Below are positions 1 through 19,294 of a stretch of DNA of 36,746 bases, in pieces. Made by a program: the position numbers and the translations under genes. Position 1 is the stretch's first letter; the number at the start of each line of letters is the position of its first letter. Source of the DNA: an uncultured Candidatus Saccharibacteria bacterium (lineage in GTDB: Bacteria > Patescibacteriota > Saccharimonadia > Saccharimonadales > OMJO01); the NCBI GenBank assembly GCA_964494415.1, contig CAZBRC010000001.1:1-36746 (forward strand). Reading direction: 5' to 3'. The notes under the pieces were generated by a model, which was not told the origin of the DNA, made no database searches, and worked only from the letters and a program-made list of their open reading frames with translations.

Positions 1-787
1 CCGGGGGGTTGCTGACGTCGGTCGGCTCGGCCGGGGGGGTCGCCTTGCATGTACCCTTGACGGGGTTGATCTGCGCGATGAGACCGGGCTTGCTCTCGTT
101 GCCGGCGATGGTGTAGTCCACCGTCAGCATGAGCTGCATCCCGGGCGTCGCCCAGTCGGGGGTGTCGATCTCGGCGGTGTGACTGCCGATGCCGAAGTTC
201 CCGAGCGTCCCGTCGTAGGTGTGCCCTTCCGCCGTCCAGTTGTAGGTGACGTCCGCCGAAGCGTCCGGCTCACCGGTGACGTCGAACGCGACCGTCCAGG
301 TCTCGACGTCGCTGCTGGTGTTGCAGGCCGACTGGTTCACGGAACCCGTGGCCGACGTGGGGATGGGAGCCTTGCAGTCGCCGGGGAGCGTGATGCTCGC
401 CGACTCGGCGGTGTTCGTCGTGATGACGTCACCGTTGTCCTTGACCCACGTGAGCTCGGGCGCGTAGTTCACGGTCTCCGTCGACGAACCGTCGAAACGC
501 TGGATGACCGTGATGTCGCCGTTCGCACGCGTGGAAGTGCCGTTGGGGGTCTCACCACCCGGGTCGCTGACGAGTCGCATGGACACGTCGGGCGTCTGCC
601 AGTCCTCGACGGGGCTGGACAGGGGGAAGTGGAGCTTCCAGGTCGCGATCTGCTGGCCGGTCTGCGGGTCGCAGTTGACCGTGCCGGCGACCGTACCGTG
701 ACAGCCGAACATCGCGTTCGCAGTGAGCGCGATGAACAGGAAGATGACGGCGAAACTCGCCGAAATCTTCGCAGCAATGCTCTTCAT
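1..787 (-). CDS. secreted/cell-surface protein of unknown function; C-terminal part cut by the window edge; compositionally foreign (high G+C)
   Basis: Absent from the ORF track because it has no in-window stop. ATG at 787..785, and the frame stays open to base 2; I checked every tta/cta/tca on the + strand and none falls in this frame. The N-terminus MKSIAAKISASFAVIFLFIALTANA/MFGCHG looks like a classic Sec signal peptide. GAGAGG lies 7 nt upstream of the ATG. Third codon positions are G/C-rich. Track ORFs 179..1036(+), 469..777(-) and 552..905(-) are Arg/Gly/Pro-rich shadow frames of this gene. Confidence 0.7.
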   Translation of the reverse strand, partial: MKSIAAKISASFAVIFLFIALTANAMFGCHGTVAGTVNCDPQTGQQIATWKLHFPLSSPVEDWQTPDVSMRLVSDPGGETPNGTSTRANGDITVIQRFDGSSTETVNYAPELTWVKDNGDVITTNTAESASITLPGDCKAPIPTSATGSVNQSACNTSSDVETWTVAFDVTGEPDASADVTYNWTAEGHTYDGTLGNFGIGSHTAEIDTPDWATPGMQLMLTVDYTIAGNESKPGLIAQINPVKGTCKATPPAEPTDVSNPP

Positions 788-853
788 GGTAATGCCTCTC
801 TGGTAGGTTCCCGGTCGTGGTTGGGAACAGGGTCTGAAGGGTTGGCTGGAACA

Positions 854-875
854 GGGGTTGGGGTTGGGTTGGGGG
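854..875 (+). repeat. G-quadruplex-capable tract GGGGTTGGGGTTGGGTTGGGGG
   Basis: Four G-runs of 3-5 nt separated by TT loops fit the G3+N1-7 x4 rule. The tract lies 67-88 nt upstream of the ATG at 787, on the strand opposite the gene's sense strand. An imperfect direct repeat GGTTGG..GAACAGGG (819-832 and 840-857) sits next to it. Confidence 0.6.
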
Positions 876-1295
876 TTTACGAATTGCTGATGTATATCTA
901 CTCACCTAGGAGCATTCCCACTCACCTACTTATAGCAGCTGAGCGCAAATGCTCCTGGGGAGGACGTACATCTTGTCTGATCTATCAAAGTGCGTACAGC
1001 CAAGGGGCAGACACACCTTCGTTTTCACGAGTTTGACAAAGTTGAAGTGGCTTAATAAATAAAAAAGCCTGGCCAAAACCAAGCTGCAAGTTTCCCACCA
1101 TTATATGAATAAATGGATTATGCACGCCGGTTTCGCTATTTGCTCCACACACGCCAAGCGACCACATACAGCGCGTGCTTCTTTGCCTCATGATTACGAA
1201 GGTGCATCCACACTCCCAAGGTGTAGCATGGAGTATTATATCAGGGGTGGTTGAATTTGTCAATACTTTTGTGTATTCCCTACCCCTGTTGAGTA

Positions 1296-17390: not shown

Positions 17391-19217
17391 TTACGGCTGC
17401 GGGAACAACGGGTTGCCGGTTGGTGGGGTTGGAGCTGGCGGTGGTGGTAAATTGTCGTCCTGTGGTGGGGTTGCCGGCTGACTGGGCGAAACCACCGGAC
17501 CATTTGGCGGCATCGTCAACCCAGCGGCTGATGCGGGTGTTGGTGGCATCATGGGCGGTGGCACCAGGGGTGGTGCGCTGGCCTGGTTGGGGCTGGCTGT
17601 CTGATCTACCGGACTGGCGGGTGGCACAATGCTGACAGGCAGGCCGTCTGCAACACTATTTTGACTGTCGGCAAAATCTTGCTGTAAACCAGCCGTGTAG
17701 ACGTCGGGGCCAGCCGGAGCTGGCGGAGTTGGTGATACTGGCGGAGCGGGGCTGTCCAAATCGATATGCTGAGCGTTTAGGGATGCGAACGGCTGTAATG
17801 GTCCTGGGGTGGTACTAACGGCATTGGAGACTGCTTCGCGGGCTCGATCAACGTGTGAAGAGTCGGCTTGCAGATGTGGGCTGTGTACCGACTGTTCTAG
17901 GTCAGTAAGCGAAGCACCTGGCCCGGGAGCCAGGGGTTCATCGTGCACATCTTCATCCTCGTCGGTGGTGCTACTGGGTGGTAGTTTGTGATTCAGGAGT
18001 GGTTGGCCAGCAGGATTAACATCGGTAGTAAGCGGGTCAACTGGCGTATTGTTGGCATTACCAATGCTTGGTGGTTGATCAAGCGGGGCTGGCGCTGGCG
18101 CACCACCAGTTGTCACCTGGCTGGCGGTATCTTTAGCAGCCGTTTGTTCGTGTTCTCGAGCAAGTTCAGAGGCGTATTTTAGGGTACCTTCATCATCAAT
18201 GTGGACTTGCTCCACATCGTCTTCCTCTTCTTCGGCATTGAGAATTTGGTTAATTGAGTCGGTAGCTTTGTCGTCATGGCTAATAGACAGTGCACCATCA
18301 TCTTTGACAGGCTTTGGTAGTTCGGCTGGTTTGGCAGAGCTCAGCGGTTTTGGTGCAATCATCCCATTATTGGGTGCGGGGATGCTCTTCTCTTTTGGAT
18401 GCTGCGCGGCGTTAGCTTCTACCGAACCTTTTGGTACCCGGAACGAATCATCTTGCGGTGGTTTTGGCGGTGGTGGCGGTGGCGCCAACTTGGTGGCGAC
18501 GAGCTGCTGGTTAGCACCGGATGTCATTAATTTCGAACTTATGGCCATAGCCGTAGATGACGTCTTGGCGTTACTGAAGCGTTCGGTTTCGGCCACAATA
18601 CCGGTTAAGAAGGCGGTTGCCATCTGTCCGTCGATAGCATCGGCCTGGAGTGATTCGGCAATGCCATAGGCCAGCTCACACAAGCTACTGACATTTGGAT
18701 CTTGCCAGTTGATAGCACCGATATCGGTGTTAGCTTGGGTGTTGACGGTGATAACCGTAGCATCATGCAAAATGCGGCCGTGCGCGGTAATGGCTTGGTC
18801 AAGTTCTTCCCTTTTTTGGACACCTAAGGCCAGTACAGCATCAACATTGAAGTCGCCGTGACTAAATTCTAAGTCGGCTTCACCAATCGAGGTGTGATAC
18901 GGAGTAATAAAGATTTTGACGAGTTTATCCTCGACTTTATAGCGCAGTTTGTCAGCTTTGGATTTGTCGAGGGCAATGATGAAATCACGCAGGCTGTCGG
19001 TGTTTTTCTCGATGGTTTTCTCTGGCTGTAGAAACTCGATGGTTGAAGGAATTTGGCCACTAAATACAGTAGTGGCGTGCTTGTTGAGCTTGTTGAGAAA
19101 CAGCGTCAGGGCAATCGCCGCCGCCAATTGATCAACTGACGGGTTATTACTAACCGTCACCAAGACGTTGTTTGCGCTGCGCAGGCGCTCGATAGCCTGT
19201 TGTTTTGGGTTTTCCAT
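17391..19217 (-). CDS. DHH/DHHA1-family (NrnA-like) domain with degenerate catalytic motifs, fused to a ~350-aa proline-rich disordered C-terminal region
   Basis: The N-terminal ~270 aa follow the NrnA layout (VLVTVSNNPSVDQLAAAIALTLFL ... IIALDKSKADKL ... VITVNTQ ... FLTGIVAETERF). The track ORF starts at a GTG at 19268. I prefer the ATG at 19217 (MENPKQQAIERL), which leaves a 113-nt divergent promoter region. The C-terminal half is Pro/Ala/Ser-rich (PPPPPPKPP, PAPPVSPTPPAP). Confidence 0.75.
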   Translation of the reverse strand: MENPKQQAIERLRSANNVLVTVSNNPSVDQLAAAIALTLFLNKLNKHATTVFSGQIPSTIEFLQPEKTIEKNTDSLRDFIIALDKSKADKLRYKVEDKLVKIFITPYHTSIGEADLEFSHGDFNVDAVLALGVQKREELDQAITAHGRILHDATVITVNTQANTDIGAINWQDPNVSSLCELAYGIAESLQADAIDGQMATAFLTGIVAETERFSNAKTSSTAMAISSKLMTSGANQQLVATKLAPPPPPPKPPQDDSFRVPKGSVEANAAQHPKEKSIPAPNNGMIAPKPLSSAKPAELPKPVKDDGALSISHDDKATDSINQILNAEEEEDDVEQVHIDDEGTLKYASELAREHEQTAAKDTASQVTTGGAPAPAPLDQPPSIGNANNTPVDPLTTDVNPAGQPLLNHKLPPSSTTDEDEDVHDEPLAPGPGASLTDLEQSVHSPHLQADSSHVDRAREAVSNAVSTTPGPLQPFASLNAQHIDLDSPAPPVSPTPPAPAGPDVYTAGLQQDFADSQNSVADGLPVSIVPPASPVDQTASPNQASAPPLVPPPMMPPTPASAAGLTMPPNGPVVSPSQPATPPQDDNLPPPPAPTPPTGNPLFPQP

Positions 19218-19294
19218 GGTTTTGGGTTTTAGTTTTTCTTCCCTGTTGGCCAGCGTATCATAAACCACAAGCGTTGTCTACCCCGTCCCAACCC

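Follow-up and report, generated by a model that had tools for sequence, protein, structure and literature searches.

In Clostridioides difficile, a class II cyclic di-GMP (c-di-GMP) riboswitch turns on the gene encoding CD2831, a collagen-binding, sortase-anchored adhesin, and related sortase substrates are likewise under riboswitches of this class (PMC6447587, PMC6200980). In Bacillus thuringiensis, the class I c-di-GMP riboswitch Bc2 is combined with a terminator in the long 5' untranslated region (UTR) of the gene for the collagen adhesion protein Cap (PMC4933901). Among the open-access papers searched, we found no report of class II c-di-GMP riboswitches in Patescibacteria. Here we describe a locus with a class II riboswitch at the left edge of a contig of an uncultured Candidatus Saccharibacteria bacterium (GCA_964494415.1, CAZBRC010000001.1). 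The window analyzed comprises 36,746 nucleotides (nt) and is the entire deposited contig. On its minus strand, a gene rich in guanine plus cytosine (G+C) starts at ATG 787, downstream of a promoter, a riboswitch, and a leader, and runs leftwards to the contig end. An earlier note on this DNA had pointed out the deviant composition and had considered that either a surface-protein gene had come from a high-G+C host or the assembly junction was chimeric. We think it probable that the high-G+C segment is instead cargo, the coding part of an expression cassette that is conserved in the lineage and native to it. The earlier note had mentioned neither the riboswitch and its terminator nor the inverted repeats, nor that the gene is mosaic.

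Composition of the contig edge and of related loci

Bases 1-787 have a G+C content of 65.8%, compared to 50.0% in the remaining window, where 787-bp windows reach at most 0.588 (mean 0.50, standard deviation 0.025). Our recount reproduced all values counted by hand in the earlier note (71.7% for bases 1-60, 63.3% for 61-120, 70.0% for 121-180, and 48.3% for 1321-1380). The open reading frame (ORF) starting at ATG 787 spans 262 codons up to the left contig end and, since the window is the whole contig, the gene is truncated there. Its G+C contents at the first, second, and third codon positions (GC1, GC2, and GC3) are 0.54, 0.53, and 0.91 (GC3 0.908), while the 30 other ORFs of the window have a GC3 of 0.513 ± 0.047 and a maximum of 0.595 (z = 8.5 for the ATG-787 gene). 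The anomaly is therefore real and unique in the window, and none of the 30 ORFs is equally G+C-rich. Segment 1-787 thus shows the deviant composition by which horizontally acquired islands are recognized. The shift is abrupt, as had been stated, but it is not confined to about 100 nt within 790-900: in a 100-nt profile, the G+C content begins to fall at about 750, within the signal-peptide codons, and arrives at background by about 900, a transition of about 150 nt. Long alternative-frame ORFs in the segment, including the plus-strand frame 179-1036, are the usual by-product of high G+C content. Other secreted proteins of the window are native in composition, and surface location alone is therefore insufficient to explain the bias. 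The ribosomal-protein and EF-P genes show no preference for G+C-ending codons. Two less pronounced stretches were noted in passing. The 3' end of ychF (2151-2400) has 62-68% G+C, with a GC3 of 0.69 in the final 100 codons, the native maximum of the window. With 59% G+C at 17501-18000, the long Pro/Ala-rich tail of a 625-aa ORF (17391-19268, minus strand) without a Pfam match ranks second among the G+C-rich stretches.

We compared the window with eight further loci (L001-L008). The sole close relative of the protein among 5.8 billion sequences, P0001, is encoded on L001, a 1.8-kb contig from another sample, on which the same terminator and leader are followed by a gene of 68% G+C and then by sequence of 41-47% G+C. 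In L005, a 49-kb contig from a third sample whose YchF is 92% identical to that of the window, the syntenic locus is complete: an ORF of 341 aa stands behind promoter, riboswitch, terminator, and leader, and the next native gene follows. The island of L005 (8400-9550) has 64-69% G+C and is flanked by 45-50% G+C on both sides; type IV pilus genes adjoin the locus. The cargo gene of L006 (YchF 79% identical) likewise lies beside ychF and has a GC3 of 0.65 against a native value of 0.46. In L002, L007, and L008, the cargo GC3 is 0.88 versus 0.54 for native genes, and in L003 it is 0.89; in the window, L005, L006, and L007, the cargo ranges from 0.65 to 0.91 and the native genes from 0.42 to 0.60. 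A high-G+C gene behind a low-G+C leader, followed by low G+C again, is found in L005, L001, L007, L008, L003, and L006, which were assembled independently from other samples. In L007 (1400-4200), even two such units stand in tandem, both of them complete with a separate promoter, c-di-GMP-II riboswitch, and pair of inverted repeats (IR-L and IR-R). Both units carry G+C-rich LPXTG cargo, and the two cargo proteins are unrelated to each other. G+C richness is a property of the cargo in every unit found, whichever protein it encodes.

Such islands also mislead gene callers, which reported an antisense ORF in L005 (8427-9503, plus strand) and a wrong frame in L007 (1819-2502, plus strand); frame 179-1036 of the window is a comparable case. 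Therefore, the real proteins are largely missing from protein databases or under-sampled there.

Regulatory frame, encoded protein, and inverted repeats

The aptamer of the window matches the Rfam family RF01786, a member of clan CL00127, over its full length (1-84 of 84) with 55.9 bits (E 1e-11). As the threshold for membership we used the curated Rfam gathering score, which is 53.5 bits for this family. Scores of 57.0 bits in L005 and of 56.8 and 56.3 bits in L007 were obtained for the relatives, and 47.8 bits for the copy in L002, which is truncated by the contig end. That contig ends inside the riboswitch because the riboswitch copies of tandem units are near-identical. Matches to RF03169 were obtained in L006 (46.3 bits) and L004 (72.7 bits). 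Among the six aptamers compared, 5 of 12 helix pairs show compensatory changes, and by eye the alignment suggests a covarying loop/tail pseudoknot, with UCGC/GCGA in the window and UCAC/GUGA in L004. The family match suggests c-di-GMP as the ligand.

The expression platform is coupled to the aptamer (Table 1). Since the antiterminator helix shares strands with both the aptamer and the terminator, the three structures are mutually exclusive, as in an OFF switch. The antiterminator is evident in the folds of the window, L005, and L007 unit 2. Without ligand, the 3' strand of the aptamer would pair with the 5' arm of the terminator and transcription would read through; with c-di-GMP bound, the 3' strand would be locked in the aptamer, leaving the terminator free to form and the gene off. 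Further downstream, the leader contains a repeat of CCCCAA-like units whose copy number differs among the window, L005, and L001, and C-rich, G-poor tracts comparable to that of the window precede the ribosome-binding site (RBS) in L002, L003, and L006. Two other candidate elements of the leader were dropped: a second promoter, as the TTGAYA in IR-L is not followed by a -10 box, and a small ORF, as no ORF is conserved.

Table 1. Coordinates of the elements in the window and of repeats and 3' UTRs in related loci (strand given where reported; positions of repeat pairs in ascending order; CDS, coding sequence)
Feature	Position	Strand	Basis or remarks
Sigma-70 promoter	1235..1263	-	Sequence; TTGACA, 17 nt, TATAAT, 12/12 matches, extended TG
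c-di-GMP-II riboswitch aptamer (RF01786)	1116..1199	-	Covariance-model match
Antiterminator helix	1074..1135	-	Minimum-free-energy fold; pairing of 1135-1121 (3' strand of the aptamer) with 1088-1074 (terminator 5' arm plus loop)
Intrinsic terminator	1056..1085	-	Stem 1085-1066, U run 1065-1056
Leader, 270 nt	Downstream of terminator to ATG 787	-	Hairpin, IR-L, C-rich tract, RBS
Leader hairpin, directly upstream of IR-L	990..1016	-	Partial structural match; conserved blocks in L003, L006
IR-L GATAGATCAGACA	974..986	-	5' member of bracketing pair; partner past contig end
C/A-rich, G-poor leader repeat CCCCCAACCCAACCCCAACCCC	854..875	-	Sequence
Leader stretch ...GCACTTTGATAGATCAGACA	Window	-	
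RBS AGAGAGG	795..801	-	Sequence; 7 nt 5' of ATG 787
Partial CDS, secreted modular surface protein, 262 codons	2..787	-	G+C 65.8%, GC3 0.91; homologs P0001-P0004, P0128
Sec signal peptide, residues 1-25, MKSIAAKISASFAVIFLFIALTANA	713..787	-	Read from translation; probable AXA cleavage after A25
Variable N-terminal beta-rich domain (type A)	377..712	-	Distant homology to N-domains of P0002, P0004
Conserved C-terminal beta-sandwich domain and start of Pro-rich linker	2..376	-	Motifs YNWTAEGH, TPDWATPGMQL
IR-L / IR-R of L005, GATAGATCAGACA / TGTCTGATCTATC	8323-8335/9662-9674		
IR-L / IR-R of L001, GATAGATCAGACA / TGTCTGATCTATC	119-131/1440-1452		
IR-L / IR-R of L006, GACAGATCAGACAG / CTGTCTGATCTGTC	817-830/2204-2217		Compensatory change
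IR-L / IR-R of L007 unit 1, GTCAGATAGATTGG / CCAATCTATCTGAC	1626-1639/2474-2487		
IR-L / IR-R of L007 unit 2, AAGTCAGATAGATAG / CTATCTATCTGACTT	2771-2785/4160-4174		Same pair in L002, L008
Structured 3' UTR of L005, after stop codon	8320-8462	-	
Structured 3' UTR of L003, after stop codon	1398-1523		
Structured 3' UTR of L006, after stop codon	815-960	-	
Structured 3' UTR of L007, after stop codon	2403-2490		

As had been read from the sequence before, the gene is well formed, with its own RBS and a Sec signal peptide. Residues 23-25 form an A-N-A cleavage motif. The product would thus be exported via Sec and cleaved after this motif. Both the N- and the C-terminal domain are predicted to be all-beta; the whole protein has an AlphaFold2 confidence score (predicted local distance difference test, pLDDT) of 52, and the C-domain one of 66.5. 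The top Foldseek matches of the C-domain are weak and serve as a lead only: they are carbohydrate-binding beta-sandwich modules with template modeling (TM) scores of 0.4-0.5. Neither Pfam nor NCBIfam gave a domain match for the protein or its relatives, apart from the LPXTG anchor in P0002, and a search of PDB sequences with the family profile gave no match. In the full-length relatives, a Pro/Thr-rich linker leads to a sorting signal, after which come a hydrophobic segment and a basic tail. This signal is LATTG in L005, LAITG in L006, LPVTG in P0002, MPFTG in P0003, and LPFTG in L007 unit 1, whereas P0001 carries LAFTD and not a G-ending motif. P0002 scores above the thresholds of the curated models TIGR01167 (18.7 versus 15.9) and PF00746 (20.1 versus 20). 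These sortase sorting signals on full-length alleles bear out the earlier idea of a surface protein. By the example of these alleles, a sortase would attach the protein to the wall via an LAxTG/LPxTG signal, so that two beta-sandwich domains would be displayed on the surface, possibly with a role in host contact.

At every locus with both flanks, perfect inverted repeats (IRs) of 13-15 nt bracket the gene. The repeats covary unit by unit, each matching its own partner. Within the loci, the motif is confined to these bracketing pairs; the window contains IR-L and a one-mismatch copy at 17598-17610, which is probably due to chance. A dispersed repeat of the miniature inverted-repeat transposable element (MITE) type was ruled out, since the motif occurs only as bracketing pairs. 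In the relatives, the stop codon is followed by a long multi-tier hairpin (GGTTCCCGG...CCGGGAAACC) and then by a short second hairpin ahead of IR-R. The multi-tier hairpin of the 3' UTR is conserved, and covariation in 3 of 20 pairs lends it modest support. The IRs may act as a 5'-3' clasp of the mRNA, as an inversion site, or as cassette ends. The proposed cassette would accordingly consist, in the order of transcription on the minus strand, of promoter, riboswitch, antiterminator/terminator, leader, and G+C-rich ORF, followed in the relatives by the 3' UTR and IR-R.

Mosaic cargo and the source of its composition

The window and L005 are 87% identical over the genome overall and 84% in ychF. 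Riboswitch and terminator together reach 98.6% and the leader 88.5%. Within the cargo, the N-domain segment (787-367) drops to 41%, which is random level, and in its DNA the window N-domain shows no relation to the allele shared by L005 and L001; the C-domain segment (366-1) has 97% identity. Of 63 four-fold synonymous sites, 96.8% agree between the C-domains, compared to 52-66% for ychF, efp, and ftsK. Therefore, this module was shared long after the genomes split. The sole difference between L005 and L001 is the anchor module, and the window ends exactly where these two start to differ (...CAACCCCCCGG). The contig probably stops at this point of allele divergence because of module exchange, which fits a break at co-existing alleles; the alternative is a G+C-related drop in coverage. 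The C-domains of the window and L007 unit 2 share 61% protein identity and are synonymously saturated (0.32 observed versus 0.40 expected for independent sites), and still both have a GC3 of about 0.9. By leader and riboswitch, the window is closest to L006, whereas its C-domain is closer to L007 (61% versus 23%). These sequence comparisons indicate that the cargo has moved independently of the regulatory frame. The mosaic alleles would have arisen because domains and anchor are swapped as modules between strains and related species.

Recent exchange between lineages keeps at least some of the modules young, and a high-G+C bacterial gene pool is the most likely ultimate source of the cargo's composition. 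Homology searches with the visible protein retrieved the relatives P0001-P0004 and P0128, none of which is a close one from a high-G+C genome: an exhaustive HMMER search of 1.84 billion representatives found four, and a profile search of the set of 5.8 billion proteins gave nothing further. P0004 (L004, 4870-5388 region) is the only relative found in a truly high-G+C genome. It is an N-domain homolog with 27% identity to the window protein and 34% to P0002, and it is encoded in a genome of 65% G+C, in which tig, clpP, and clpX have a GC3 of 0.85-0.93. A c-di-GMP-II-GAG aptamer (RF03169) lies 31 nt upstream of P0004, and the contig ends inside the gene. Since this aptamer belongs to the same clan, riboswitch and protein also occur together where such a composition is native. 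A high-G+C gene pool agrees with this 27-34% identical homolog and with the LAxTG signals, but no close donor was found.

Several observations speak against a cassette as outlined above. The aptamer lies only 2.4 bits above its gathering score and has a weak P1 stem, and for L006 and L007 unit 1 the antiterminator is not evident in the minimum-free-energy fold. While the window aptamer (1116-1199) is assigned to RF01786, the orthologous aptamer of L006 (2355-2437) scores best as the GAG variant RF03169. Because orthologous aptamers are split between the two families, the class boundary and the ligand are uncertain in this group; to our knowledge, the ligand of the GAG variant has not been established. 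The fold of the protein is unassigned, since neither the model of the whole protein nor that of the C-domain gave a Foldseek match at E <= 0.001. The wall anchor of the window protein, whose own 3' end is missing, would have to be that of the other alleles, and neither a sortase nor a diguanylate cyclase gene was seen among the window ORFs that were scanned for domains. Finally, no close homolog from a high-G+C genome was present among the 1.84 billion representatives or in the 5.8-billion-protein set, searches with peptide patterns and a conserved 22-nt leader block did not give any match in JGI metagenome contigs, and viral contigs, plasmids, and phages yielded no relative. These donor searches are to be read with the caveat that gene finders mis-call the family, which is hence under-represented in protein databases.

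Repeated import and upkeep in place are both possible ways to keep such a composition. In the latter case, the bias would be upheld either by selection for a very stable and structured mRNA or, if the locus is a hot spot of recombination, by GC-biased gene conversion. This explanation is favored by the bias in the cargo of every unit, even where the proteins are unrelated (L007 unit 1 versus unit 2), and by the fact that old, synonymously saturated alleles are all G+C-rich. Moreover, the locus recombines heavily, and hairpins at both the 5' and the 3' end of the mRNA are conserved, with a potential helix closing the two ends. It is at odds with the L006 cargo, whose GC3 of only 0.65 looks like partial amelioration, and with the lack of a G+C-ending codon preference in the ribosomal-protein and EF-P genes. 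We also know of no bacterial precedent for a rise of GC3 from 0.5 to 0.9 by biased conversion. Upkeep in place appears rather unlikely to us.

Even less weight should be given to the reading, put forward in the earlier note, that this genome took up the gene recently and in a single event from a high-G+C (actinobacterial) host. The high GC3 (0.91) combined with an elevated GC2 would fit such an event, as would the N-domain homolog behind a same-clan riboswitch in a 65% G+C genome and a C-domain much younger than the split between the window and L005 genomes. The LAxTG motifs, which are typical of class E sortase substrates in Actinobacteria, point to the same kind of donor. But the locus is old: the gene occupies the same site beside ychF in genomes with 92% and 79% YchF identity, and it is G+C-rich in all syntenic genomes as well as in the L002/L007 and L003 lineages. 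The promoter, riboswitch, leader, and 3' UTR are conserved and of native composition, and C-domains from different lineages still have a GC3 of about 0.9 despite synonymous saturation. The hallmarks of mobility are lacking as well, with no tRNA in the window, no recombinase domains or other mobility genes, no direct repeats, and a syntenic position in the relatives, and the databases searched held no close donor homolog.

It is similarly improbable that the IRs delimit an invertible, phase-variable segment, in which the whole gene would flip relative to the riboswitch-controlled promoter. In its favor are the perfect IRs of 13-15 nt around every complete unit, with a spacing of 0.83 kb in L007 unit 1 and of 1.3-1.4 kb otherwise, which covary between units and are not dispersed elsewhere. 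However, only one orientation is present in all assemblies, no contig is bounded at the outer repeat edges, as would be expected for a population of mixed orientation, and the flanks examined did not contain a recombinase domain. A chimeric junction between a high-G+C and a mid-G+C organism, suggested by a sharp shift at a contig edge, can be dismissed, since the junction of leader and gene is 88-98% identical in two other samples, the G+C content drops again behind the island of L005 and L001, where the next native gene lies (both flanks of L005 have 45-50% G+C), and the layout of promoter, riboswitch, terminator, RBS, and ATG spans the join.

We thus retain the conserved cassette native to the lineage as the probable explanation. 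Only tentatively, we propose the more specific possibility of an undescribed type of exchangeable cassette in a reduced-genome, probably epibiotic lineage. Its native frame, consisting of the riboswitch and covarying IRs, would receive G+C-rich cargo, the composition would be kept by import or by a bias in place, and the IRs would serve as mRNA clasp or recombination site.

Implications and comparison with known systems

For quality control, the locus illustrates that contig ends with a sharp break in G+C content need not be mis-joined, the break being biological here; for annotation, that gene callers trained on the host mis-call such islands. Membership in Patescibacteria is compatible with the housekeeping genes of the window and with the type IV pilus genes beside the L005 locus, but it is no more than probable, as YchF relatives of 72-74% identity are labeled Saccharimonadales, Patescibacteria group, Limnocylindria, or Verrucomicrobiae. 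If the lineage assignment holds, second-messenger sensing is tied to a variable wall-anchored protein in organisms that depend on contact. If the cell does not make c-di-GMP itself, the riboswitch could read a host-derived signal. The persistence of a GC3 of about 0.9 across species in genomes with a GC3 of about 0.5 bears on the rate of amelioration of foreign genes and on the ability of biased conversion or of selection to hold a composition.

As at the CD2831 locus, the 5' UTR contains a c-di-GMP riboswitch of class II with a termination-based platform, and the gene behind it encodes a secreted surface protein, which here is putatively anchored by a sortase. In contrast, the CD2831 riboswitch is an ON switch in front of a gene of native composition, while OFF is predicted here, and the window protein has no known domain, a deviant G+C content, and mosaic modules, with IR brackets in the relatives. 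With the Bc2-cap system it shares a c-di-GMP riboswitch and terminator in a long 5' UTR governing a wall-associated adhesin, which is putative in the window, but there the aptamer belongs to class I, the protein to another family, and neither a compositional island nor a cassette layout is present. In hok mRNA, which belongs to a toxin-antitoxin context, the 5' and 3' ends pair by long-range fold-back. By analogy, the complementary, covarying 5' and 3' UTR segments found here could close the mRNA. Compositional genomic islands show the same sharp break in G+C and codon usage, which is confined here to one gene; the locus differs from them in the lack of integrase, tRNA, and direct repeats, in its conserved position across species, and in its native regulatory frame, only the ORF being deviant. 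Invertons and shufflons, such as the phase-variable switches of C. difficile (PMC9286219), also have short perfect IRs near c-di-GMP-related regulation, but the IRs described here enclose a whole gene and not a promoter, in a single orientation and with no recombinase found. Taken together, the locus departs from the known adhesin systems in its predicted polarity, its extreme, persistent compositional deviation, its modular exchange, and its covarying IR brackets.

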